24,594 bases of DNA from an uncultured Candidatus Saccharibacteria bacterium (GTDB taxonomy: Bacteria; Patescibacteriota; Minisyncoccia; UBA6257; UBA11618). Where the stretch lies: positions 1 through 24,594 of the forward strand of contig CAYSNH010000002.1 in the NCBI GenBank assembly GCA_964432405.1. Reading direction: 5' to 3'. How positions within the stretch are numbered: the first letter of the stretch is position 1; the number at the start of each line of letters is the position of its first letter. A program made the translations under genes and the position numbers. A model generated the notes under the pieces. It saw nothing but the letters and a program-made list of their open reading frames with translations. It had not been told where the DNA came from and made no database searches. Below are positions 1,601-20,113 of this stretch, in pieces.

Positions 1601-2323
1601 TTATAATTCTAACTCGGCTTCTATGAACTTATCAAGCTTTCCCTCTAAAACATCCTCGGGTTGATTGACGGTAACGCCAGTTCGATGATCTTTGACTTTT
1701 TTATAGGGGTGGAGGACGTAAGAGCGAATCTGATTTCCCCACTCAGGGGTTATTTTGGTTCGTAAATTACCAAGCTCCTTTTCTTGCTTCTCCTCCATTA
1801 ACTTAAATAAGCGAGCTTTTAGGAGGTTAAGGGCTTTTTCTTTATTTTGCATTTGAGATCTTTCTGCTTGAGAGGCAGCGCTAAGACCGGTTGGTAGATG
1901 GACTATCCGAACAGCGGTTTCACGCTTATTAACGTTCTGACCACCCGGACCACTAGAGCGAGACATCTCCACCTTTAAATCGTCCTCGGGTATTTGTATT
2001 TGACCAGCTTCTAATTCAGGCAGTTCTGGCACTATCTCCACCAAAGCAAAAGAGGTGTGGCGTAGTTTTTTAGAAGAAAAAGGAGAGATCCTAACAAGAC
2101 GATGAACACCAACTTCATTTTTAAGATTGCCGTAAGCATAGTCTCCTTTTATCTCTAGTTGTAAATCATCAGTAACAACAACCTTCCAGCCCCTTTTTTG
2201 AGCATATTTGTGGTACATATTGAATAGCATATGCGACCAATCTTTAGCATCATCACCACCAGCACCAGCATAGATAGAGAGATGAGCATTATTACGATCG
2301 TATTTTTTATCTAATGATTTCAT
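1601..2323 (-). CDS. prfB: Peptide chain release factor 2, N-terminally minimal (domains 2-4 only, 240 aa)
   Basis: SPF stop-codon recognition tripeptide (RISPFSS), GGQ motif (SGPGGQNVN), and RF2-like GVHRLVR and IRSYVLHPY blocks. Aligns to E. coli RF2 only from about residue 105 onward. The ATG is 1 nt from the tRNA-Thr 3' end. Confidence 0.85.
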   Translation of the reverse strand: MKSLDKKYDRNNAHLSIYAGAGGDDAKDWSHMLFNMYHKYAQKRGWKVVVTDDLQLEIKGDYAYGNLKNEVGVHRLVRISPFSSKKLRHTSFALVEIVPELPELEAGQIQIPEDDLKVEMSRSSGPGGQNVNKRETAVRIVHLPTGLSAASQAERSQMQNKEKALNLLKARLFKLMEEKQEKELGNLRTKITPEWGNQIRSYVLHPYKKVKDHRTGVTVNQPEDVLEGKLDKFIEAELEL

Positions 2324-2324
2324 G

Positions 2325-2396
2325 AGCCGGAGGTGAGATTCGAACTCACGACCTCTACTTTACGAAAGTATTGCTCTGCCCCTGAGCTACACCGGC
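2325..2396 (-). tRNA. tRNA-Thr (anticodon CGU), CCA not encoded
   Basis: Hand-folded cloverleaf on the reverse strand: acceptor GCCGGTG/CTCCGGC (one U-U), D arm GCTC-AGGGGCA-GAGC, anticodon arm ATACT-TTCGTAA-AGTAG, T arm GTGAG-TTCGAAT-CTCAC, discriminator T. 72 nt. Confidence 0.85.
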
Positions 2397-3658: not shown

Positions 3659-3927
3659 TGAGATTCTGGAACAACTATAATGAGTTTTTCGCCTGGTTTA
3701 ACATAATTAAACCGCGATCGAAGTTCTTTTTCAAGATTGTCTGCGTTTTTAAGGTATTTTATTTCAGCCAATAATTCACCATTTTCATTAAGAAGGGGTT
3801 GTAACTCACTTCCTATTTTATCAAGATCGGTTTGTAGGGCGGTTCTTTGTTTACTGAGAGAGTAAATTTGAAAGCCTAAGCCAGCTATACAAATGATTAA
3901 TATAATACCAAATAAGGTTTTCATCAA
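3655..3927 (-). CDS. Septum formation initiator family protein (FtsB/DivIC-like)
   Basis: 90 aa: N-terminal TM, leucine-zipper-like coiled coil, C-terminal LEKELRSRFNYVKPGEKLIIV typical of the FtsB/DivIC family. ORF-track start is TTG at 3927; an ATG follows at 3924. Stop is TGA at 3655..3657. Confidence 0.65.
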   Translation of the reverse strand: MMKTLFGIILIICIAGLGFQIYSLSKQRTALQTDLDKIGSELQPLLNENGELLAEIKYLKNADNLEKELRSRFNYVKPGEKLIIVVPESQ

Positions 3928-5406
3928 TTAGAACCCTCCAGGACTAGTGGGAATAGGTATCACTCCTCCAGGACCAGGACTAGTGGGAATAGGTATCACT
4001 CCAGGTGTAGGAGGAATGGTAGGTGCTCCTGGTGATACAGGTCCAGGAGTAGAAGGAAAGGTTGGAGAAGTAGGAAAATTTGGAATGGTGGGTGTTATAG
4101 GAGTTGCGCCAGGTGTTACTGGCCCTCCTGGATTAGTTCCTGGAGTTTGCGGATTTCCTATTATTGGCGGTGTTTTCGGTTCTGTGATTTGAACATCGCT
4201 AGGAGGATTAGGCTCTGGAGTAGCTGGGCCAGCACTACCATATATGCCAAAATTCCACTTTAATGGATCTTGGGGAATATAAACATTATCAGGAACCATT
4301 GAAACTATAAGGCACTTGGGATCAGGTTGGTTTTTAAGTTTTAGGCACATTCCTGTGAGCGGCATACCTATCACGTGATTAGTGAAATTTTGATGAGGAA
4401 TAGCCATCTCATTAAAATATTTTGGGTCTATCACAGGAAGTTTCGTAGGACCCTTGTCTATCTGCTCAACTATAAAAGTATCTGAATTATTACCAGTCAA
4501 ATTAGGTCTATCTATTCGGGGCCCCGCTCCAATAACAACGGGTCCATTTTCTATATAATCTGATATATTAGCAAAAGCTCCATCTTCTCCATAAAAATCA
4601 CTAATAGGCATGACTACTCCTTGCGTACTGTCATTTATTTTGGTTAACGAATCTCTATAAGCTTGCTCTAAACGCGGATCACCTCTCCAACTTCTTGGCA
4701 TGGGCAACCAAGGAAATATTTCTCCTGGTTTAAGCCATCTACTATCACCAATAGTTATTGAATGATAATAATCATCTTTTATAGTGTACATTTCTTTATA
4801 CAGATCACTATCTGGAGTGGTTCCAACAAATATACCTACAGTTTTACCATCAGGACCCCTAACTGGAGCTCCTGGAAGTAAATTGACTATAAGATCATTG
4901 GGGAAAACAAACTGGCCAACTTTTGGATCATATTTTAAGCCAGTTAAAACTGGTTTACCATCCGCACCTATGTATGGAATGGTGTATATAATAGTATTGC
5001 CATTTTTATCAAGTCCAGTTTTAGATGGATCATTTCCTGGATTGAGAAAGGTTGGAATGTCGTCTAGCTTAGGATCCATAATAGTATATATGTATCTAAA
5101 TCCGGTGGGACCATTAGGACCAACAAGAGGTTTTGTTACCACACCTACAGATCCAGTAGTGAGGTCTTTGATACTACCAACCGGATAAACAAAAGGCCTT
5201 CCTTTAATGTGCTGATCAGGATAATGATAAAGAACCGGCCTAAAGTGACCGGGAGTAATTTCAACCTGAACATAAACACCTCCACTAATATCGATGCCCT
5301 GAGCTCGAACTCGTTTTTCTTCAGGTAATTTTGGATAGATTATTAATACAAAGAGTATTAATGAGATATAAAAGACTAATTTTTTATTTTTATTTTTATT
5401 TTTCAT
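3928..5406 (-). CDS. Membrane-anchored or secreted protein of unknown function with a Pro/Thr/Gly-rich C-terminal tail (492 aa)
   Basis: MKNKNKNKK plus hydrophobic helix at the N-terminus, about 400 aa of unrecognisable globular sequence, then a roughly 90-aa P/T/G low-complexity tail ending in a duplicated GVIPIPTSPG unit. Confidence 0.7.
   Translation of the reverse strand: MKNKNKNKKLVFYISLILFVLIIYPKLPEEKRVRAQGIDISGGVYVQVEITPGHFRPVLYHYPDQHIKGRPFVYPVGSIKDLTTGSVGVVTKPLVGPNGPTGFRYIYTIMDPKLDDIPTFLNPGNDPSKTGLDKNGNTIIYTIPYIGADGKPVLTGLKYDPKVGQFVFPNDLIVNLLPGAPVRGPDGKTVGIFVGTTPDSDLYKEMYTIKDDYYHSITIGDSRWLKPGEIFPWLPMPRSWRGDPRLEQAYRDSLTKINDSTQGVVMPISDFYGEDGAFANISDYIENGPVVIGAGPRIDRPNLTGNNSDTFIVEQIDKGPTKLPVIDPKYFNEMAIPHQNFTNHVIGMPLTGMCLKLKNQPDPKCLIVSMVPDNVYIPQDPLKWNFGIYGSAGPATPEPNPPSDVQITEPKTPPIIGNPQTPGTNPGGPVTPGATPITPTIPNFPTSPTFPSTPGPVSPGAPTIPPTPGVIPIPTSPGPGGVIPIPTSPGGF
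3938..4002. repeat. Perfect 29-bp direct repeat with 36-bp period inside the C-terminal tail coding region
   Basis: ccaggactagtgggaataggtatcactcc occurs at 3938..3966 and again at 3974..4002. It encodes the duplicated 12-aa GVIPIPTSPGPG unit. Confidence 0.9.
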
Positions 5407-5418
5407 AAATATAATTTA

Positions 5419-6447
5419 CTACTTAGGGAATTCAAATGGCTTGGTTGGGTCTGAATATATGGTTCCCAGATCCTTTTTGCCTACTGGCAAAGGAGGTCTT
5501 GGGTTGGGAGGTTTTGGCCTAGGAGATGCCTGAGATTGATTTAATCTTTTTTCATAATCTGCTTTAATTTTTTGAGCTATTTTTAAAGCTTTATCTAGCT
5601 CTCCTAATGGAGTGAATGTCCTAATTGGTACCTGTCTAACAAAAGGAAAGGGGTCAAATACACTTCTATATCTTCCCGTAAAATGACCTGGATAATCATA
5701 AACATTAAAGTAATCTTCATAATCTGCTCCAAGATATTTCTTGAAATGACCTCTTAAAGTTAAGCCTTCTGCAGTTCTATGATTGGGATCTAAAAAAATA
5801 TTTCCTTTGTTTTTTACTGGACTAGGTCGGGGCGTTACTACGGGAGGTTTAACTGGCTTCCATCCACCATCATCAAGAATTATTATATCAGGCTTAGGCT
5901 TAGGCTTAGGGGTTGGCTTAGGGGTTGGTTTAGGGGCTGGTTTATTTTGATCAAGATAGCCTTGAATGATTTCTGCAGGTGTCCTTTCATCAGCAGGTTG
6001 TCCCATATTAATAATAACAGATGGATCTGTTTTTTCCAGAAATACAACCTCTATATTTTGACCATAATATGTTCCAGTTAGTGTTCCATCCGGCTCTTTA
6101 GCTGAATAATAGTTTTTAATGAGATCTGCTATAAATTTTTTATCATCCTTTTTTTCCTCCGATCGAATACTCACCCATACTTCATGATTTTTATCAAACT
6201 CACCATTTAGTATAAGATGAGCTTTTAATATGTAGTAATCAATGCCGCTTTTGATGGGGCCCAACCCCCCAGGAGCTTCTTTGTATTTATATATTATATC
6301 AAAATTATATTTAATTATACCTACTTCAAAAACTCCTTTCTCTTCAGCTTTAATAAAAGGACTTTCTAATTTAAAAAGAAAAACCATCACTAAAATAGCT
6401 ATAACCAGCCAAATTATCTTATCTATTTTTTTTGCTCTAGTAGTCAT
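5419..6447 (-). CDS. Membrane-anchored protein of unknown function with a central (K/T/A)P repeat linker (342 aa)
   Basis: N-terminal basic stretch plus TM (IIWLVIAILVMVFLF), two unrecognisable domains separated by KPAPKPTPKPTPKPKPKP, and a Pro-rich C-terminus. Confidence 0.7.
   Translation of the reverse strand: MTTRAKKIDKIIWLVIAILVMVFLFKLESPFIKAEEKGVFEVGIIKYNFDIIYKYKEAPGGLGPIKSGIDYYILKAHLILNGEFDKNHEVWVSIRSEEKKDDKKFIADLIKNYYSAKEPDGTLTGTYYGQNIEVVFLEKTDPSVIINMGQPADERTPAEIIQGYLDQNKPAPKPTPKPTPKPKPKPDIIILDDGGWKPVKPPVVTPRPSPVKNKGNIFLDPNHRTAEGLTLRGHFKKYLGADYEDYFNVYDYPGHFTGRYRSVFDPFPFVRQVPIRTFTPLGELDKALKIAQKIKADYEKRLNQSQASPRPKPPNPRPPLPVGKKDLGTIYSDPTKPFEFPK
5891..5940. repeat. Hexanucleotide tandem array (GGCTTA/GGGGTT units) encoding the Lys/Thr-Pro linker
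   Basis: ggctta ggctta ggctta ggggtt ggctta ggggtt ggttta ggggct, read directly from the sequence. Confidence 0.85.
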
Positions 6448-6454
6448 TTATATT

Positions 6455-7555
6455 TTATTTTTGAGCATCTATTAAAGCCTGTCTCGCTTCTTCTTGTTGT
6501 CTTAGTAAAGTCTTCCATCCTGGTTTATCTAAAAACTTATTTAATGAGGTACTAGAGCAACCTATATTTCTTGGTGGCTTAGTTGCCGGATCTACAGAAT
6601 TACAAACGCCAAAAACAGAAATCACGCCGGTTCTAGAGTCAACGTTATATATCCCACCGCCCGATCTGCCTCCTTCTACTTCAAGATTATTTCTAGGATC
6701 AATAAAAATAAGTTCTCCTGATGGACCAATAAAGTTACTCTCAGTAACTACGCAACTAGTTTGAGGAGTAGGAATTTGACCAGGTTGAGGAAAATAGGCA
6801 GGTAATCCACCATGAGGACAGCCTACTTGAAAGACTTTATTGCCTTTTTCAGGCGGGGTTGAAGAAATAATGACTGAGGGCAATTCTGATGCCGCAGGTA
6901 TGGAGACAATTGCTAAATCAGGCGCACTATCCCATTGATTAACTATTCCTGTTACCGTTTTGATAATCTTTCCATTTATATCAAAAATCTCAATTTTAAC
7001 TTTTCCATCACTATCATCTCTAATAACGTGCCAATTAGTGATAATAGCCTCTCTTCTTCTCCCTTTTTTATCAATATACTCACCAATTGAAAATCCACTA
7101 CCTTTTCCCATGCCTTGTGGATTACTGGTTGTAATTCTAACATTAGCTAGTTTAGCATTCTTTATCTGATCTTCCATAGAAGGAATGCTTATGGGAGGCT
7201 CTATTTCTGGATAGTCATCAGCACTAATATCAATTCCTTCGTTCCTTCGAAGATCTTCTTCGAGTCGTTGCCTACCCCTTTCATTATCCCGTGGATCGAA
7301 ATTAGTAATAATTGGATCTTCATTAATTAACTTGCCATCTTTCTCTATCGTAATGACATAAAGAGTCATACCATCCTGAACTCTTTTTTCAATATCTATA
7401 TCAATGCCTGGCTGTTCAGCAAAAATTACTGGCTGATCAATAACACCAGAATCCTGACTTACCGTTACCACACCTAGCAACAAGGTAAAAACAGCAATTA
7501 AAAGCCACCAGAGCGAGTTTTCTTTAAATTTTCTAAATAAAGGGTTGTTGATCAT
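6455..7555 (-). CDS. Membrane-anchored trypsin-fold (PA clan, S1-like) serine protease
   Basis: N-terminal TM (LWWLLIAVFTLLLGVVTV). Candidate catalytic triad in canonical order: His in ITNWHVIRD, Asp in APDLAIVSI, Ser in GGRSGGGIY. No PDZ domain seen. Confidence 0.65.
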   Translation of the reverse strand: MINNPLFRKFKENSLWWLLIAVFTLLLGVVTVSQDSGVIDQPVIFAEQPGIDIDIEKRVQDGMTLYVITIEKDGKLINEDPIITNFDPRDNERGRQRLEEDLRRNEGIDISADDYPEIEPPISIPSMEDQIKNAKLANVRITTSNPQGMGKGSGFSIGEYIDKKGRRREAIITNWHVIRDDSDGKVKIEIFDINGKIIKTVTGIVNQWDSAPDLAIVSIPAASELPSVIISSTPPEKGNKVFQVGCPHGGLPAYFPQPGQIPTPQTSCVVTESNFIGPSGELIFIDPRNNLEVEGGRSGGGIYNVDSRTGVISVFGVCNSVDPATKPPRNIGCSSTSLNKFLDKPGWKTLLRQQEEARQALIDAQK

Positions 7556-8286
7556 TATTTAATAACTAAATTACCATTAATCACTTGGACTCTAATTTTA
7601 GCTGGGACAGCATTTCCTTTCCAACCTATTTTCCGTGCTTGTTTAATAGTAAGATAATAACCCGGTTGTCCAAAACTACTTCGACAGTGCGGACACCATT
7701 GAGGCTCAGTTATCTTAACTTCCACAAAAGTATTTGGTTTTTGTAATACTTTTTCTAATTCTTCTAAGGTAACGTAATATAATTTATTCTTTCCGAAAGT
7801 TCCCAAAAAAGTACTAAAGTATCCTGAATATTTTGGATTTGGATGAAGCTTAAAGTCCTTGAATGATTTCTCAAAATCGTGATACTGAGAAACTTGGGGA
7901 GGGGTAGACGTTGTTGGAGGCTCAGGCTGTTCGTGATCTTGCTCTCTTAGCTTCTCTCTTAGGTTCTCAATAGCTTCTTCAACTCCATTACTAGGACCAA
8001 TAATGATGTTTCTAGTAGGTTTAGAGGGTCTAGTTGTAGGAGGAGTAACTGCTTCTTCATCAATAGGAGGGACTGATGAATCTCCTGACTGAGCACTAAT
8101 CTCTGCTTGAATAACTGCTATTTCTTGATTGAGCTCTTTAATTTCTTTGGTTACTTTGTTTAAGCGCTCAATATAGTTTTTTAAAGTATCTACTGGATCT
8201 TTTCCCTGAACATATCCAATAGTAGGGGCTAGTAGAATGCCTGCTACAAGAATAACTCCTATTGTTTTGAAGATTCCTTTGTGCAT
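7555..8286 (-). CDS. Secreted or anchored coiled-coil, Pro-rich protein with a C-terminal WCPHC motif (243 aa)
   Basis: Signal-like N-terminus (IGVILVAGILLAPTIGYVQG), coiled coil, PPTTRPSKP and EPPTTSTPP linkers, and a C-terminal roughly 70 aa containing WCPHC (7684..7698). Start is 1 nt after the upstream stop; its stop overlaps the next ATG by 1 nt. Confidence 0.7.
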   Translation of the reverse strand: MHKGIFKTIGVILVAGILLAPTIGYVQGKDPVDTLKNYIERLNKVTKEIKELNQEIAVIQAEISAQSGDSSVPPIDEEAVTPPTTRPSKPTRNIIIGPSNGVEEAIENLREKLREQDHEQPEPPTTSTPPQVSQYHDFEKSFKDFKLHPNPKYSGYFSTFLGTFGKNKLYYVTLEELEKVLQKPNTFVEVKITEPQWCPHCRSSFGQPGYYLTIKQARKIGWKGNAVPAKIRVQVINGNLVIK

Positions 8287-8287
8287 A

Positions 8288-9757
8288 TTATTTTTTCTTT
8301 AAACTATCAAGCTCTTTTTTCAATTCGGCTATTTGTTCTAAGTAAGTGTCAAGATCAGGTTTGCCATTAGGATCCTTATATACGTCTTGCCAATTTTTAC
8401 CTAAGTAAGTGATGAGGTCCGTCAATATCTTTATTTTTTCTGCTACTTTAGCATCCCTCTCTTTGATTTTATCAGCTAATTTTTTTTCAAGATCTTCTTT
8501 TTCATCAAAAGGCGACTGAATTTCTAAATCCTCATATCCTCCAGGCAAGCCCTCTCTTATCTCATCTTCAATAATCTTAAAATCATTATTTTTTTGGTAT
8601 TCAAGAAGAGCTTCCAACGAAATTTTAATTTCTATTTCTGAACATCCCGATTCTGTGCAAACTTGAATCTTAATTACACAATCAGTTTTTCCTTTTTTAT
8701 CAAAGCAAAATGTGCCAATAATATTTCCCTCTTCATCAACTGGTATTTTTATCTCACCGTCTGAAACCGCAAATGGATCAGTTGTTGGGGGTTCAGCTCC
8801 ATCTGATTGTGCGTCATCCATAGAATCTTGTCTCTCTTGTCTCTGTTGTATGAGATCTCTTAATTGTTGAATTCTTTCATCCCTTGCAGCATTTTCTTTT
8901 CTAAGCCTTTCTATCAGTGCAGCTGCCTCAGCTTCTGTTTTTGGATCTGAGCCTTTGGAAGGAGGGTTGTTCATTCTTTGAGCTAAAAGACTTATTAAGC
9001 TAATAGATGTTCTTTTTTTACCAATACCAAGCTCTTTTTCTAATCTTCTTTCTTCAGCTTCTTTTTCCATTGCCTCCCTCTCTAATTTATTAATTTCCTG
9101 TATTTGAGCCTTGGTAGGAGGACGTACAGGAGGTGTTATAGGCACAATACCATTTTGATAAAAAGCAACTTTATTCATTATTGCCGCAAGCGCTTTCTTA
9201 GCGCTTTCCACCTCTTTTTTTGAGCCTGGGTCCGTTGAAAAAGCTACAATAAATATAGGCTTATTAAATCCATGATATATAGTATTTTGCGCTCCTGTAT
9301 TTGGATTTCTAACTATTTCCGTGTGACCTAAAAGATTTCTTATTTTTATAGCATCCTGTCGAATACCAACTATATGATTTTTTATTCTATTATTATCAAA
9401 TTTTATTTTGCCTTCTTTCATATCTTTCATATCTTTTATCAAGGCATTTACTTTCTTATTTTCTGTCAGTAGAACTCTTTTAATTTCTTCTATATTTTTA
9501 ATAGCCGCCCTCCTTATATCGTTGCCAAGTAAAGAGGCTCTGATATCTGCATTGAGCTTTTTTTGTTTTTCGACCATAAGATCAAAGTTAACAATAATCA
9601 TTTGATTAACTTCCCGCAGAACCTTATCTAAGTCTTCCTTATTTGGCTGCCCAACAGCGCCAGTAAAAACATTACCTTGCTGACCAAATCCTATAATCAA
9701 CAATAATAAAAGCGCTCCTAATACAATAAGACCTTTTTTTCTACTTTTAGCTTTCAT
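8288..9757 (-). CDS. Membrane-anchored coiled-coil protein of unknown function (489 aa), first gene of the operon
   Basis: MKAKSRKKGLIVLGALLLLLIIGF anchor, long charged coiled-coil regions, and a four-Cys cluster (CFDKKGKTDCVIKIQVCTESGC). No family recognised. Confidence 0.7.
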   Translation of the reverse strand: MKAKSRKKGLIVLGALLLLLIIGFGQQGNVFTGAVGQPNKEDLDKVLREVNQMIIVNFDLMVEKQKKLNADIRASLLGNDIRRAAIKNIEEIKRVLLTENKKVNALIKDMKDMKEGKIKFDNNRIKNHIVGIRQDAIKIRNLLGHTEIVRNPNTGAQNTIYHGFNKPIFIVAFSTDPGSKKEVESAKKALAAIMNKVAFYQNGIVPITPPVRPPTKAQIQEINKLEREAMEKEAEERRLEKELGIGKKRTSISLISLLAQRMNNPPSKGSDPKTEAEAAALIERLRKENAARDERIQQLRDLIQQRQERQDSMDDAQSDGAEPPTTDPFAVSDGEIKIPVDEEGNIIGTFCFDKKGKTDCVIKIQVCTESGCSEIEIKISLEALLEYQKNNDFKIIEDEIREGLPGGYEDLEIQSPFDEKEDLEKKLADKIKERDAKVAEKIKILTDLITYLGKNWQDVYKDPNGKPDLDTYLEQIAELKKELDSLKKK

Positions 9758-15749: not shown

Positions 15750-16322
15750 ATGCTTTCATATACAGAATTAAAACCCGGAAGAGCAATCATTGTTGATGGA
15801 CAGCCTTATGAGGTTGTTGATTACTCCTTCTCCAAAATGCAACGTCAAAAGGGTGTGGTGCAATCAAAGATAAGAAACCTGATCAACGGGAAGATTTTGA
15901 GCAGGAGCATTCATTCTAATGAGAGTTTTGAAGAAGCTGAGATTAATAAAGTGGATGTTAAATATCTATACAATCATCGTGGTGAATATTGGTTTAGCGA
16001 ATTAGATGATCCTAGTAAACGATTTTCTTTAACAGAAGATATTATTGGTGAGACTGGCCGCTTTCTCAAAGGTAATGCGGTTGTAACGGCTATTATATTT
16101 AAAGAAGATATTATTAATATAAATATTCCTATTAAAATGGATTTAAAAGTTAAAAGCGCCCCACCAAGTGATAAGGGCGATACTGCTACAGGCGGTCGAA
16201 AACCGGTTATTTTAGAGACCGATGCCAAAGTCAATGTCCCTCTTTTTGTTAATACAGGAGATGTGATCCGAGTTAATACTGAAAGTGGTGAGTATGTGGA
16301 GCGAGTAGAGAAAGCTAACTAG
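15750..16322 (+). CDS. efp: Translation elongation factor P
   Basis: Aligns along its full length with EF-P (DGQPYEVVD, KYLYN, KGDTATGGRKP, VPLFVNTGDVIRVNTESGEYVERV). The ORF-track start at 15711 lies inside the upstream terminator, so the ATG at 15750 (MLSYTELKPG) is used. Confidence 0.9.
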   Translation: MLSYTELKPGRAIIVDGQPYEVVDYSFSKMQRQKGVVQSKIRNLINGKILSRSIHSNESFEEAEINKVDVKYLYNHRGEYWFSELDDPSKRFSLTEDIIGETGRFLKGNAVVTAIIFKEDIININIPIKMDLKVKSAPPSDKGDTATGGRKPVILETDAKVNVPLFVNTGDVIRVNTESGEYVERVEKAN

Positions 16323-17803
16323 CTATCCTCCGTCACCTTCTCCTCTGACTCCTCGTTGCTCTTTAAAGCACCTTCTAAGGCGCTCCTTAGGGCGTCGATG
16401 TTAACTTCAGCCTTTTTCTTCTTAGGGTACTGTTTAGGCCTCTCCTGGCTTCTTGGCTTTAGAGCTTCTTTAAGAGATTTTTCTCCTTTACGCCTAGTCT
16501 TTTCTTCAGCTGGACTACCCTCACTCAACCATTCCTTGGCTATTTTTTCTTCTACCTTTTCTTTAGCTACGCTATAACGACTCCGAGTATTTTCGATAAT
16601 AACATCTTTAAAATCTTTAGCTGGCTTAATGTGTGGAGCGATGGTTTTAGCGGCAAATGGTCGTGAAGCAACTCCATCGATCATAAGCTTTATATAAATG
16701 TGATATTTAGAAAGATTAACCAGATCATTAGCCTCGTATTCAGGCAAGAACTCTTTCTCTACAAACTCCGCATCATCAGCTCCAATTCGAAAAATTATCA
16801 TAGTGCCAACGTTACCAAAAATAGCTGAGCGGATAGTACTCTTACCCTCCTCATCTAACTGCCTTAAATACTGATTAGCTAATATTAAGGAAAGGCGATA
16901 TTTTCGAGCTTCAGAAAGAATGTTGGCAAAAGATTCCGTAGCAAAGTTTTGAAACTCATCAACATAAAGATGGAAATCTTTTCTTTCTTTTTCAGGCATA
17001 TCAACTCGAGACATAGCAGCTAACTGCAACTTGGTAATGATCATGGCACCTAACAAAGCAGAATTATCCTCTCCAATTTTTCCTTTGGATAGGTTGACGA
17101 TAAGAATCTTTCGCCCATCCATTATCTCTCTCATATTAATAGATGAATGAGATTGACCTAACATATTACGAACCAAAGGGTTGGAGGTAAGTTGACCAAC
17201 CTTGTTTTGAATAGCAGCGGTAGCTTCTGATTCAAAGCGCTGACTGTATTTAGAAAACTCATCAACCCAGAAACTCTTGATGACTGGGTCTTTTAAGTTA
17301 TCCACAATCTCTTTTCGATATTTAGGATTATTAAGCATTCGTAGAATTCCTAATAAAGTAGTGCCTGGATATTCCAAGAGGGCTAACAAGGTGTTATTCA
17401 AAATATATTTCATCCGCGCTGACCAAACATCAGCCCATATCTTTTCAAAAACTCCCATCATGCTAGAAGCTACCAAATGACGATAATCCTCCCCTACCTC
17501 TTCTAAAGGATTGAAAGCTATTGGAAACTTGGTATCGGAAGGATCTATATAAATAACATCATCCATTCTCTCTTCCGGAATAAAGCTTAAAATCTTTTCT
17601 GCTGAATCACCATGAGGATCGATAAAAGCCAAGCCCTCACCAGCTTGGATATCGTTGATGATCATATTTTCTAGCAACGTACTCTTACCAACCCCAGTTT
17701 TTCCAAGAACATAAATATGCCGACGACGATCATCGGTCTTAATACCAAAGTTTCGAGGCTGATTACGAAAAATAGTTTCGCCTAAAGTAGTAATATTTTC
17801 CAT
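16319..17803 (-). CDS. Type IV coupling protein-like P-loop ATPase (TrwB/TraD/VirD4 nucleotide-binding domain) without a transmembrane segment
   Basis: RRRHIYVLGKTGVGKSTLL (Walker A preceded by RH), then FIDPHGD about 20 aa later as in TrwB, Walker B FHLYVDEFQNF, and RKYRLSLILANQYLRQL (compare the GLQSxSQL region). No N-terminal TM. Charged disordered C-terminal tail. Confidence 0.7.
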   Translation of the reverse strand: MENITTLGETIFRNQPRNFGIKTDDRRRHIYVLGKTGVGKSTLLENMIINDIQAGEGLAFIDPHGDSAEKILSFIPEERMDDVIYIDPSDTKFPIAFNPLEEVGEDYRHLVASSMMGVFEKIWADVWSARMKYILNNTLLALLEYPGTTLLGILRMLNNPKYRKEIVDNLKDPVIKSFWVDEFSKYSQRFESEATAAIQNKVGQLTSNPLVRNMLGQSHSSINMREIMDGRKILIVNLSKGKIGEDNSALLGAMIITKLQLAAMSRVDMPEKERKDFHLYVDEFQNFATESFANILSEARKYRLSLILANQYLRQLDEEGKSTIRSAIFGNVGTMIIFRIGADDAEFVEKEFLPEYEANDLVNLSKYHIYIKLMIDGVASRPFAAKTIAPHIKPAKDFKDVIIENTRSRYSVAKEKVEEKIAKEWLSEGSPAEEKTRRKGEKSLKEALKPRSQERPKQYPKKKKAEVNIDALRSALEGALKSNEESEEKVTEDS

Positions 17804-17818
17804 TATTTTAATTATACA

Positions 17819-19021
17819 TTATTCGGTAGGAAGGTTGCTTGGTGGAGCACCTTTCTTGAACTCAACTGAACGAACATTAGGAGCTCCAACGGTAATACTA
17901 GGAAAGTGATATAAGGTTGCCAGCTCTTCAATGTTAAAGATGGAAAATTTAGGGCTGCTAGAACCGATATAACCCGGGAAGATACGGCTACGATAAGTAT
18001 TATATATACTTCTTTTTTTGTTATAGACCCTTCTCTTTTTGAAAATATCCCTAAAGATGCCCCGAGTGATAGTCATGGTATCTAGATTAGGCATAAAGCT
18101 GTTAAGATTCATCGTGTTTAAATGCTGAAAGGTGCCCATGACAGCTGCAATATGATCTCGACTAAAGTGATCCTTGTGATCAATGAAGACAAAACGAATA
18201 ACGCACTCAAAACCAATCTTAGCCGCCTTATCATCAATGCCAGCTACCACCTCTCGCTCTCCTTTACTTAACGCCACAAAGGAAGCCGACTCCTCTCCTT
18301 TATTTCGACCCATCAACTCATCTCTAACAGCCTCGGCCTTCTTTTTCCAACTGGAATCGGTAGGGCGAACTAGAATCTGAATCCAAATTCTCTCACCTTC
18401 CTTTAGGCGAGACATGGCTTCCATAAGGATAGCGACCGTATCTAATTTCTCCTCTTCACCTCTTGCCTCAGCTTCAAAAGAGGCGTAAGTTCGAAAAGGA
18501 TAGGCGCTGTCTTTAACTAAAACAAACTCGGTGCCAAATAGGTCATAGTTGTCGTTGGGTAAGACCTCAGGTAGATCATCAACGTAGTCATCAACCACCT
18601 CTATCTCAGAATTAGGATATTGAGCATAAATAGCTGACTCTATTAAATTACGAGCCCCTTTATCGATACGAATATAAAAATGAACGCCGCTAGAGTCACC
18701 TACTAATTCAAAAGAGCCCCAGCCCTCTTGCTTACCACCAAAATACTTATCTCTAAATTTAGCTCCAAAAGAATAGGTTTGATTAAATGCAGCAAAAATT
18801 TGCTCCATAGCCTTGGGTGTCTTTTGAATCTCTCTGGGTGGAGTAATTTTCAAAAGTACCCACTCGATACTTTCCAGGTTCTTTTTACGAACATGAAATA
18901 ACCAAGCAGAAAGAAATATTAAAAATAAGATGATTGGAACAAACAACCACCAAGTAACAGCAAAAACATCTCCAATTGACTGAGCAAAATCTGAAACTAT
19001 GTCACCAAATGAAAAAGTCAT
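17819..19021 (-). CDS. Membrane protein of unknown function, operon partner of the coupling-protein-like ATPase (400 aa)
   Basis: N-terminal TM region (VFAVTWWLFVPIILFLIFLSAWLF), then a roughly 340-aa soluble domain with no motif I recognise. Ends 15 nt upstream of the ATPase ATG. Confidence 0.65.
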   Translation of the reverse strand: MTFSFGDIVSDFAQSIGDVFAVTWWLFVPIILFLIFLSAWLFHVRKKNLESIEWVLLKITPPREIQKTPKAMEQIFAAFNQTYSFGAKFRDKYFGGKQEGWGSFELVGDSSGVHFYIRIDKGARNLIESAIYAQYPNSEIEVVDDYVDDLPEVLPNDNYDLFGTEFVLVKDSAYPFRTYASFEAEARGEEEKLDTVAILMEAMSRLKEGERIWIQILVRPTDSSWKKKAEAVRDELMGRNKGEESASFVALSKGEREVVAGIDDKAAKIGFECVIRFVFIDHKDHFSRDHIAAVMGTFQHLNTMNLNSFMPNLDTMTITRGIFRDIFKKRRVYNKKRSIYNTYRSRIFPGYIGSSSPKFSIFNIEELATLYHFPSITVGAPNVRSVEFKKGAPPSNLPTE

Positions 19022-19056
19022 ATTTCTATTTATAATAGCAAGTTTATTAAGTAATT

Positions 19057-19078
19057 AAAAAAGCCTAGTTTCCTAGGC
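19057..19078 (-). terminator. Rho-independent terminator overlapping the stop codon of the regulator gene
   Basis: Minus strand reads GCCTAG-GAAA-CTAGGC followed by T6. The TAG stop of the upstream gene lies in the 5' arm of the stem. Confidence 0.6.
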
Positions 19079-20113
19079 CTTCTTAATCATGTAGCGACCG
19101 TCATCAAGTCGTCTAAAGTAATTTCTGTCTTGCAAGTTAAGTAAGAGAGTATTTTCTTTGAACATTCTTTGTTCTAACACTAATTTGATAACTCCTCTTG
19201 ATTCTTGAGGACCGTGCTTACGAAGAATCTGAGAGATAACTTCTCGAGCTGTACCGGCCATAAGATTAAATTCTTTTAGACCGTAAGTTCCTCTACCCAC
19301 TAGTACAAACCTACCATCCTTAATCAATTCATTGTGAACTGTTTGTGGGTTGGTAATTTTGTTTTTTCTTAAAAGATTGATTTTGGTTGTAAGTTCGGTG
19401 AAATGCATTGGAGCATTCTTTTTCTTCAAAACTAGATAAGCCCAATCACGAGAGGTCTTAGGATTAATCTCTGTCCAACTAGAAAGACCAAAATCATTAT
19501 AAGCGTTATTAGCAAACTTTTTAGAAACAGCCACGTAGTTAAGAGCTAGATGACGAGGACAACCACAAGACTTAATAGTCTTAACAAATACATCATCAAA
19601 CTTATTATTAATAATAAGATCGTCTTTTTTATTTTTAATACTGGCTGATAGCTTGATAATTAGATCGTTAGCCTTTTTAATCTGGCTGTCATTAACGTAC
19701 CAGAAAGCGTGATAATCTTTGTTTTCAGACTGACGATTAAATACGCCTGAACTCTGCAAGATAAATTTAATTTTATTATTATAATTATTAGCTTTTTCAG
19801 AGCCAATAACCTTTTTTAGGTCCTCACAAAGAACAGCTTCTTTCTGAACACCACCTAATTTATTAAAATGCTTCTGAAGATCTTTTACCAAATCACTAAA
19901 ACTGCCACGCGCAAACTTGGCTCGAACGCTATTCAAGGCCAGTAACTCGACCTGACGAACTCGTTCACGAGTAATGCTATATTTTTCACCAATCTTGGCT
20001 AAAGTCATTGGTTTTGCTTGATTAAGACCAAAACGACTAGAAAGAATATCTTTCTGCCGACTAGTTAGATCGGCAACCAAGGTATTAATGAGTTTATCGA
20101 TTTGATATTTCAT
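19073..20113 (-). CDS. Sigma-70 region 4 plus HARE-HTH fusion protein (putative transcription factor, 346 aa)
   Basis: N-terminus LTSRQKDILSSRFGL...MTLAKIGEKYSITRERVRQVELLALNSVR matches RpoD region 4.2. C-terminus WAYLVLKKKNAPMHFTELTTKI...HNELIKDGRFVLVGRGTYGLKEF matches the HARE-HTH (RpoE/delta N-terminal-like) pattern. No sigma region 2 or 3. Confidence 0.65.
   Translation of the reverse strand: MKYQIDKLINTLVADLTSRQKDILSSRFGLNQAKPMTLAKIGEKYSITRERVRQVELLALNSVRAKFARGSFSDLVKDLQKHFNKLGGVQKEAVLCEDLKKVIGSEKANNYNNKIKFILQSSGVFNRQSENKDYHAFWYVNDSQIKKANDLIIKLSASIKNKKDDLIINNKFDDVFVKTIKSCGCPRHLALNYVAVSKKFANNAYNDFGLSSWTEINPKTSRDWAYLVLKKKNAPMHFTELTTKINLLRKNKITNPQTVHNELIKDGRFVLVGRGTYGLKEFNLMAGTAREVISQILRKHGPQESRGVIKLVLEQRMFKENTLLLNLQDRNYFRRLDDGRYMIKKA

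Follow-up and report, generated by a model that had tools for sequence, protein, structure and literature searches.

The DNA analysed here (hereafter the window) is a stretch of 24,594 nucleotides, positions 1-24,594 of contig CAYSNH010000002.1 from an uncultured Candidatus Saccharibacteria bacterium. On its minus strand lies a two-gene unit that encodes a membrane protein of the DUF8128 family (PF26449) and an ATPase related to the coupling proteins of type IV secretion systems (T4SSs). The gene of the DUF8128 subunit (17819..19021) specifies 400 aa with a single N-terminal transmembrane (TM) helix followed by a large, predicted cytoplasmic alpha/beta domain. The second gene (16319..17803) specifies a TM-less ATPase of the type IV coupling protein (T4CP) family with 494 aa, made up of nucleotide-binding domain, helical insert and variable tail. 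Both open reading frames (ORFs) had been pointed out in an earlier, sequence-only reading of the window and are present as claimed, including the intergenic spacer of 15 nt (17804..17818); they lie in the same frame, the order being TAA, five codons, ATG. An intrinsic terminator on the same strand (19057..19078), with a 6-bp G+C-rich stem gcctag, a gaaa loop, the complementary ctaggc and a run of six T residues, overlaps the stop codon of the upstream gene, whose product combines a Sigma70 region 4 with a HARE-HTH domain (sigma-r4/HARE-HTH). The hairpin is therefore the end of this upstream gene and the 5′ limit of the two-gene unit. Its 3′ edge is given by the stop codons of the ATPase gene and the convergent efp gene, which overlap at 16319..16322, and the limits originally proposed for the unit are thus real on both sides. 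Base composition is flat across the unit and the same as in the flanks. There is no obvious Shine–Dalgarno-like sequence ahead of either the DUF8128 or the ATPase start codon, and a TATAAAT sequence is found 7-13 nt 5′ of the DUF8128 ATG (19028..19034).

The surroundings of the unit contain nothing that resembles a conjugative element. In the window, ORFs of at least 100 aa yielded no match to a relaxase, VirB4, VirB6, pilin or integrase family, which bears out, for ORFs of this size, what the sequence-only reading had stated. The contig was also read for 10 kb beyond either end of the window, where, as in the window, the genes are ordinary housekeeping genes and none of these families (relaxase, VirB4, VirB6, pilin, integrase) was detected either. 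An integrative and conjugative element (ICE) or other conjugative element just outside the window had been named as a possible source of the pair, and none exists in the ~45 kb over which the source contig is legible in all.

The ATPase contains, in order, the four motifs that had been listed for it. The first, RHIYVLGKTGVGKS (aa 28-41), includes the Walker A or P-loop sequence GKTGVGKS (aa 34-41; 17681..17704), which is preceded by the family-invariant FGIKxDDRRRH. It is followed by IDPHGD (aa 61-66), by the Walker B sequence LYVDE (aa 279-283; 16955..16969) inside FHLYVDEFQNF, and, after FQNF, by the sensor-like motif ANQY (aa 309-312) inside ANQYLRQL. GKTGVGKS and LYVDE are invariant in the 33 aligned members of the family, and judging from these residues the nucleotide-binding domain is catalytically intact. 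In all 33 aligned homologues the chain begins ~30 aa before Walker A, and the best 19-residue Kyte–Doolittle window of the ATPase reaches 1.35, in agreement with the proposal that it lacks the N-terminal TM domain of classical coupling proteins. There is also no room for an N-terminal HAS barrel of the HerA type. Between Walker A and Walker B, the secondary structure of an AlphaFold2 (AF2) model has an all-helical insert (aa 105-229; 17117..17491) at the topological place of the all-alpha domain of TrwB, which itself sits between these two motifs (PMC7434980). The C-terminal tail (aa 427-494; 16322..16525) is rich in lysine and glutamate, varies in length within the family and is modelled with low confidence (pLDDT <50 at aa 427-465), with a helix predicted at aa 469-488. 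It ends in VNIDALRSALEGAL, a conserved, amphipathic short helix with the family consensus VDIxxLRxALExSL, in which we see a candidate docking peptide.

Profile and fold comparisons place this ATPase nearer to coupling proteins than to HerA, FtsK or VirB4, which was the comparison suggested along with the original assignment. Three Pfam models of coupling proteins score above their gathering cut-offs (given in brackets): TrwB_AAD_bind with 44 bits (20.5), T4SS-DNA_transf with 41.8 (20.1) and TraG-D_C with 33.4 (22). DUF87 reaches 26.6 bits, just over its cut-off of 23.2, while FtsK_SpoIIIE (16.5 bits; cut-off 24) and AAA_10 (14.6 bits; cut-off 27.5) stay below theirs. The top NCBIfam match is the VirD4-like CD1115 family. 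When a profile of the 33-member family was run against all sequences of the PDB, DotL and TrwB were the only matches, and hhalign aligned the family with TrwB of R388 (probability 95.9%, E 5e-9) and found no match to TrwK/VirB4 of the same plasmid (probability 2%). Single-sequence searches give a measure of the distance involved: phmmer scored TrwB at only 32 bits and retrieved neither TrsK nor any of three VirB4 proteins, so that on sequence the kinship to classical coupling proteins is a distant one. In the AF2 model (pLDDT 81.2) the ATPase has the overall fold of TrwB together with the helical insert. The best Foldseek matches are TrwB chains (E 1.4e-11, TM-scores 0.56/0.64); DotL and Cag-beta also rank high, and HerA and the C-terminal domain of VirB4 mostly rank lower, the HerA structures below TrwB and with smaller TM-scores. 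The ATPase thus shares with the VirD4/TrwB coupling proteins (TrwB, DotL, Cag-beta) the series RH...GxTGxGKS, DPxGD, hhhhDE and Q-rich motifs and a helical insert between Walker A and Walker B, and these proteins are its best matches in both sequence and fold. It differs from them in having no relaxase or T4SS gene beside it and in being a chromosomal core gene.

The partner protein was described in the sequence-only reading as having an N-terminal TM region and a large soluble domain that could not be recognized. The first part is correct: there is exactly one TM helix (aa 19-44, VFAVTWWLFVPIILFLIFLSAWLFHV; 18890..18967), the only one of the unit, with a hydropathy of 2.64 and lying within a continuous helix in the AF2 model (aa 5-51). 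Its flanks are acidic on the N side and basic on the C side (RKKN). From this pattern, which recurs in most of 34 homologues, the predicted topology is N-out/C-in and the large domain would be cytoplasmic. The second part needs to be revised, as the soluble domain is DUF8128 with a predicted fold that may be VirB4-like. PF26449.1 is the precomputed assignment of a 100% identical protein (P0001) and of nearly all of 120 listed homologues, and the gene table of the source contig also lists the partner as PF26449:DUF8128. Our own scan returned no Pfam or NCBIfam match at E values up to 1, the Pfam release used being older than PF26449, and a profile of the partner family produced nothing meaningful against PDB sequences. 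Conservation within the family is good, and its signature stretches are TPKAMEQIFAA, ESAIYAQYPDAE and NxEELATLYHFP...KKGxPPxxLP; in the window protein the cytoplasmic domain closes with the conserved motif NIEELATLYHFP...KKGxPPxxLP. Neither DUF8128 nor PF26449 was mentioned in the literature searched.

The AF2 model of the partner (pLDDT 86.7, pTM 0.83) consists of the long N-terminal helix followed by alpha/beta domains. In a Foldseek search of the PDB with this model the first 11 places are taken exclusively by TrwK/VirB4 chains of plasmid R388, the only matches of high probability (0.99-1.00; E 7e-6 to 6.5e-4). Foldseek gave no aligned ranges; the VirB4 structure 4ag5, which contains the C-terminal domain only, is absent from the top 50 matches of the partner and present among those of the ATPase, which suggests that the resemblance is to the N-terminal domain of VirB4. 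One could then imagine that the pair constitutes a second, split ATPase of the VirB3–VirB4 type which powers the assembly of a pilus or envelope structure and is not a receptor for cargo. VirB3–VirB4 fusions consist of a TM segment, then the N-terminal domain, then a RecA-like domain, and the DUF8128–ATPase pair mirrors this order, with a TM helix that looks VirB3-like and with the 4ag5 pattern hinting at the right part of VirB4. The layout of TrwK/VirB4, possibly together with VirB3, is the same in this respect. However, there is no detectable sequence similarity between TrwK/VirB4 and the window pair in either half. The ATPase is T4CP-like and VirD4-type in the sequence comparisons with VirB4 (TrwK in hhalign, the three VirB4 proteins in phmmer and AAA_10 in Pfam), and DUF8128 has no sequence similarity to TrwK, TrsD or the N-terminal domain of a VirB4-like protein, with TM-scores that are modest. 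We therefore regard a role in assembly as improbable. Three more specific proposals for the partner found no support, as no similarity was seen, namely that it is a homologue of TrsD, a small anchor of the TrsJ type, or a sequence homologue of the VirB4 N-terminal domain.

A direct indication of the nature of the pair comes from homologues in which both proteins form a single chain. A tblastn search of plasmids with the partner matched the N-terminal part of proteins annotated as 'DUF87 domain-containing' on Bacillus plasmids. In one of these, a 913-aa protein of the B. subtilis plasmid NZ_OX419581.1, aa 55-312 align with the partner family (probability 97.9%, E 4.7e-13) and aa 320-742 with the ATPase family (probability 99.8%, E 5e-28). 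Searching with this protein uncovered many proteins of 800-1100 aa that join PF26449 to the T4CP domains, encoded by metagenome-assembled genomes (MAGs) of Jacksonbacteria, WS5, WWE3 and others. The fused sequences run through ...KKGEPPxNLP, a short linker and ...FRxxxxxFGIKxDDRRRH...GKSGxGKS, and the break between the genes in the window coincides exactly with this inter-domain linker. An N-terminal TM helix is present in four of the five fused sequences read from the Candidate Phyla Radiation (CPR). The DUF8128 partner thus provides in trans the TM segment that is absent from the ATPase, and most of the fused homologues have it in cis. A profile run against the full database (1.84 billion representatives) has fused proteins in half of its alignment rows and hence covers both domains over 838 positions. 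It yielded 38,856 matches at E≤1e-3 and 12,576 at E≤1e-30, numbers that include relatives of the ATPase alone and are not a census of DUF8128, and most of its top 150 matches span both domains (619-2006 aa). Fusion in some lineages and adjacency in others are a classic sign of a single functional unit, and by this sequence criterion the two window genes are the halves of one protein. The idea of a split coupling protein, put forward in the sequence-only reading, is in this way backed by actual single-chain forms.

The pairing is also conserved among genomes. In a scan of species-representative genomes at least 576 contained the partner, and 80 loci were kept, all from Patescibacteria-type MAGs and including one complete Wolfebacteria chromosome. 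In 78 of these 80 loci the ATPase gene comes directly after the partner gene in the same orientation, which goes against the possibility, raised along with the original assignment, that the pairing is not conserved. As for the two exceptions, one contig ends too early and the other, L064, carries an insertion; at positions 3896..5352 of this locus a HicB-like gene of 83 aa and a gene for a multi-pass membrane protein follow the DUF8128 gene where the ATPase would be expected. The pair belongs to a block with the conserved order secDF / sigma-r4-HARE-HTH / DUF8128 / ATPase / efp. In 77 of the 80 loci the next gene upstream, in the same orientation, is the one for sigma-r4/HARE-HTH (median gap 87 nt); secF is found upstream of that gene in ~60 loci and efp just downstream of the ATPase gene in ~42. 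Median identities to the window proteins are 63% for the ATPase, 52% for SecF, 51% for EF-P and 41% for the partner, and 177 columns are invariant in the alignment of 33 ATPase sequences compared to 26 in the partner family. These comparisons show that the pair is inherited vertically within a conserved housekeeping block, with an ATPase more strongly constrained than EF-P or SecF. The two families are neighbouring genes all through the Paceibacteria-type lineage, of which the window is part, and the pair is thus a core feature in a large group of ultra-small bacteria.

The upstream neighbour (19073..20113, minus strand) codes for 346 aa with Sigma70_r4 at aa 14-64 and HARE-HTH at aa 223-282 (Pfam), and contains no other sigma regions. 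A functional coupling of the pair to this gene was considered and dropped: the terminator lies between them and the gene is absent beside the fused genes of loci L084 and L085. We have left the association as one of synteny.

The same data bear on the suspicion that the pair might be what is left of an integrated conjugative element, decaying and now without a function. That non-CPR relatives are plasmid-borne, and that a gene fused elsewhere is here split into two ORFs in one frame, could be taken as traces of such a history. Yet both halves are intact, as judged by the 177 and 26 invariant columns, the split is common to 78 of 80 species-level genomes, the base composition is that of the flanks, the window has no integrase and its two tRNA genes are not adjacent to the pair. 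The conservation data effectively refute a remnant or pseudogene, to which we assign next to no likelihood.

A component of an anti-phage defence system, consisting of a MADS-like or HerA-type ATPase and its partner, has to be considered because the PADLOC profile 'mad8' (MADS) matches the ATPase over aa 26-373 (75.5 bits, E 1.3e-21) and HerA defence profiles match it more weakly. MADS is a multi-gene system that includes a methyltransferase. In the case of the window pair, the partner matches no PADLOC model, and neither a methyltransferase nor a nuclease nor any other defence-type family turned up in the window or in the DNA flanking it. Presence at a single locus, vertical inheritance, fixed synteny and high conservation are moreover the opposite of what is seen with patchy, island-borne defence genes. 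A defence function was accordingly rejected on gene context and appears very improbable to us. With regard to the ATPase itself, the mad8 score exceeds that of every Pfam T4CP model, which suggests that mad8, known to us by its PADLOC label alone, falls in the same ATPase clade.

Outside the CPR the closest relatives are found in conjugation-type gene clusters. On the Bacillus plasmid NZ_OX419581.1 the gene following the fusion (WP_144625398.1) encodes a 'replication-relaxation family protein', and a 'conjugal transfer protein', TcpD, TcpE and a VirB4-like ATPase (AAA_10, 285 bits) are encoded nearby; the fusion gene thus sits where a coupling protein is expected. The plasmid NZ_CP096663.1 of Halorussus limi, typed as MPF_T, carries a separate DUF8128-like gene of 376 aa (E 2.4e-11) which overlaps the start of a gene for a 1007-aa TraG-D_C/T4SS-DNA_transf protein, with a pilin gene in the vicinity; the 1007-aa protein matches the window ATPase family at E 3.6e-30. 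In both plasmid forms the two domains are homologous to those of the window pair and have the same order and the same junction. They differ in adjoining relaxase-like and Tcp/VirB4-like or pilin genes, they are only 26-28% identical to the window ATPase, and the Bacillus protein as annotated has no N-terminal TM segment whereas the window partner does. The phmmer scores obtained with the window ATPase descend stepwise from Paceibacteria-type orthologues (700-760 bits) through fused CPR forms (380-490) and a second CPR paralogue (318) to Halorussus (138), Bacillus/Paenibacillus (97) and finally TrwB (32). On these scores the DUF8128-linked ATPases are a coherent clade apart from canonical VirD4.

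Some elements of this picture are already known, both for coupling proteins that lack a TM domain and have a membrane partner and for orphan T4CP genes in the CPR. 'T4CPs lacking a TMD' are listed in reviews, and for TraJ of pIP501 a small membrane protein, TraI, has been suggested as the anchor (PMC7434980, PMC12857230); TraI has two predicted TM domains (PMC12857230). Classical T4CPs carry two N-terminal helices within the ATPase chain, while in the window anchoring falls to another protein, of 400 aa, which has one TM helix and the large DUF8128 domain. TraJ/TraI resemble the window pair in that a soluble T4CP is encoded beside its proposed membrane anchor in a monoderm setting. They are found inside a conjugation operon, a context that the window pair lacks, and TraI is described as small with two TM segments, compared to the 400-aa DUF8128 protein. 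TrsJ of pSK41, which is small and the positional analogue of TraI, has no similarity to the window partner.

For Patescibacteria, Quinonero-Coronel et al. (2025) reported 5,713 VirD4-type homologues in 2,918 of 3,035 genomes (96%), of which only 148 are near virB4 (PMC12102498). VirB4-containing T4SSs were found in 2,417 of the 3,035 genomes, mostly without a relaxase, and relaxases in just 103 of the surveyed genomes (PMC12102498). The window ATPase very probably belongs to this VirD4-type set, nearly all of which, like the window gene, is located away from virB4 and without a relaxase. The term orphan used in the sequence-only reading is correct only locally, over ~45 kb without T4SS genes, given that in ~80% of Patescibacteria genomes a VirB4 T4SS is encoded at another place (PMC12102498). 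That orphan VirD4-type genes were exapted is a possibility which the authors of the survey raised and could not exclude (PMC12102498). The consulted part of their paper has no mention of a DUF8128 partner, of a TM-less or split versus a fused architecture, of a VirB4-like fold, of secDF/efp synteny or of plasmid relatives (PMC12102498). The DUF8128 partner and its fold, the relation between split and fused forms, the exceptional conservation with fixed synteny and the plasmid relatives therefore appear to be undescribed.

We consider it somewhat better than an even chance that the pair is a split, membrane-anchored motor of the T4CP family which has been exapted and probably serves a relaxase-less chromosomal T4SS; for the service to such a T4SS taken by itself, the chances are roughly balanced. 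According to this proposal the DUF8128 subunit would tether the ATPase subunits and organize them into a ring on the cytoplasmic side of the membrane, where ATP hydrolysis would recruit a macromolecular or polymeric substrate, either protein or nucleic acid, and drive it toward a membrane channel. The ancestor would have been a coupling protein for DNA transfer that was exapted once the relaxase was lost, and a conjugative ancestry is favoured because the nearest non-CPR relatives, on Bacillus and haloarchaeal plasmids, sit in conjugation-type clusters. Today the pair would most likely act as substrate receptor or energizer of an MPF-FATA-derived chromosomal T4SS without relaxase located elsewhere in the genome. 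This role is preferred because coupling proteins normally work with a T4SS and often lie away from it, and because the T4SS clusters of Patescibacteria are otherwise devoid of a coupling protein. The T4SS cluster of Southlakia, for instance, contains no recognizable coupling or relaxase protein (Wang et al. 2023, PMC10633639).

Several observations speak against this proposal. No T4SS gene is found near the pair within ~45 kb of the source contig. A t4cp1 match is present in six out of six VirB4-negative draft genomes checked, in other words all of them carry a VirD4-type homologue. The conservation of the ATPase beyond EF-P and SecF would suit a housekeeping role as well. The one T4CP homologue tested in Southlakia, which may or may not be of the DUF8128 type, turned out to be non-essential while the T4SS genes are essential (PMC12102498). 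As regards the partner, its likeness to TrwK/VirB4 comes from Foldseek alone with TM-scores of 0.34-0.42 (query-normalized), and hhalign comparisons with TrwK, TrsD of pSK41 and a Bacillus VirB4-like protein gave nothing significant in the N-terminal domain.

Part of this evidence would be accommodated if the split motor were an autonomous housekeeping translocase, a membrane-anchored nucleic-acid pump that operates without any T4SS. It might transport DNA or RNA through the membrane or along it, for uptake or to scavenge nucleotides, or else clear or segregate chromosomal DNA during division in the manner of FtsK/SpoIIIE or of TraB from Streptomyces. Besides the strong conservation of the ATPase, the fixed housekeeping synteny and the VirB4-negative drafts, it is in line with such a function that VirD4-type genes occur in more genomes than VirB4, 2,918 versus 2,417 (PMC12102498). 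This excess may on the other hand be a sampling effect, as there are some two paralogues in each genome and the MAGs are incomplete.

The fused CPR loci are informative here. A WWE3 chromosome (L084 10001..12829, on an 864-kb contig) encodes, 4 kb from efp, a 942-aa fusion of TM helix, DUF8128 and ATPase which continues into a C-terminal S1 RNA/ssDNA-binding domain, and this domain would suit an autonomous pump, although the S1 fusion is a single case. Two long contigs from another CPR lineage (L085 2276..12910 and L090 1544..13216) contain fused DUF8128–ATPase paralogues in tandem, the first with and the second without TM helix. Small proteins of no known family are encoded between them, a large one (865 or 1554 aa) upstream, and secDF is adjacent. 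These conserved neighbours of their own also agree with an autonomous machine. The tandem is possibly a hetero-oligomeric form of the motor. The fused gene of L091 has genes for multi-pass membrane proteins and a POTRA_1 protein as neighbours. Cell-division genes (FtsZ/FtsA, a POTRA_1 protein, DivIC, FtsEX) are found within ~10-20 kb at several loci, which again speaks for an autonomous role. None of the four fused CPR loci examined (L084, L085, L090, L091) contains a recognizable T4SS gene. Still, no channel partner has been identified for an autonomous pump, and disruption of comEC left the viability of Southlakia unaffected (PMC12857230). In addition, t4cp2 matches (TcpA-type, FtsK-like) are common in the same genomes; if these are FtsK homologues, no replacement of FtsK is needed, and the simple version in which the pair stands in for FtsK is weakened. 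A search of the literature on FtsK in Parcubacteria/CPR returned nothing usable. Altogether we view an autonomous translocase as possible, if rather unlikely.

A bolder variant, which we find doubtful, is that of a CPR-wide, T4SS-independent and physiologically central membrane motor, domesticated from a conjugative coupling protein into a housekeeping translocase, that moves nucleic acid or another polymer for nucleotide-auxotrophic cells and in which DUF8128 and the VirB4 N-terminal domain are truly homologous. If it were correct, VirB4 and VirD4 would both derive from an architecture that this family still displays; and a VirB4-like fold that reflects homology would in any case bear on the divergence of the two.

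To what was known, the analysis adds that at least one large class of orphan VirD4-type genes is half of a two-part protein, with DUF8128 as the other half. It also adds that this pair is among the most conserved genes of its neighbourhood, that it exists in fused and split forms and, in certain lineages, as tandem paralogues, and that its non-CPR relatives lie in conjugation-type clusters. Much of bacterial diversity is accounted for by Patescibacteria, whose exchange of material with hosts is poorly understood. The two proteins, with their interface predicted to lie at a known junction, offer a testable target for asking whether the essential T4SS of Patescibacteria has a coupling protein and what its cargo is.

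A few further features of the window and contig are of separate interest. Between lepA and a DivIC/SurA-like pair, five co-oriented genes (3928..9757, minus strand) encode proteins of 492, 342, 366, 243 and 489 aa. A trypsin-like peptidase domain is present in the 366-aa protein, and the other four are without significant matches in Pfam or NCBIfam. A release-factor gene (1601..2323, minus strand) encodes 240 aa with a PCRF match that begins only at profile position 95, and the protein seems to be missing the N-terminal region that class I release factors typically possess. The start of this gene is abutted by a tRNA-Thr gene (2324..2396). Lastly, on the source contig ~11-14 kb to the left of the window (L088 12003..14232), ComEC is encoded downstream of ftsE/ftsX by two adjacent ORFs, the first carrying the DUF4131 and Competence domains (471 aa) and the second the Lactamase_B domain (275 aa).

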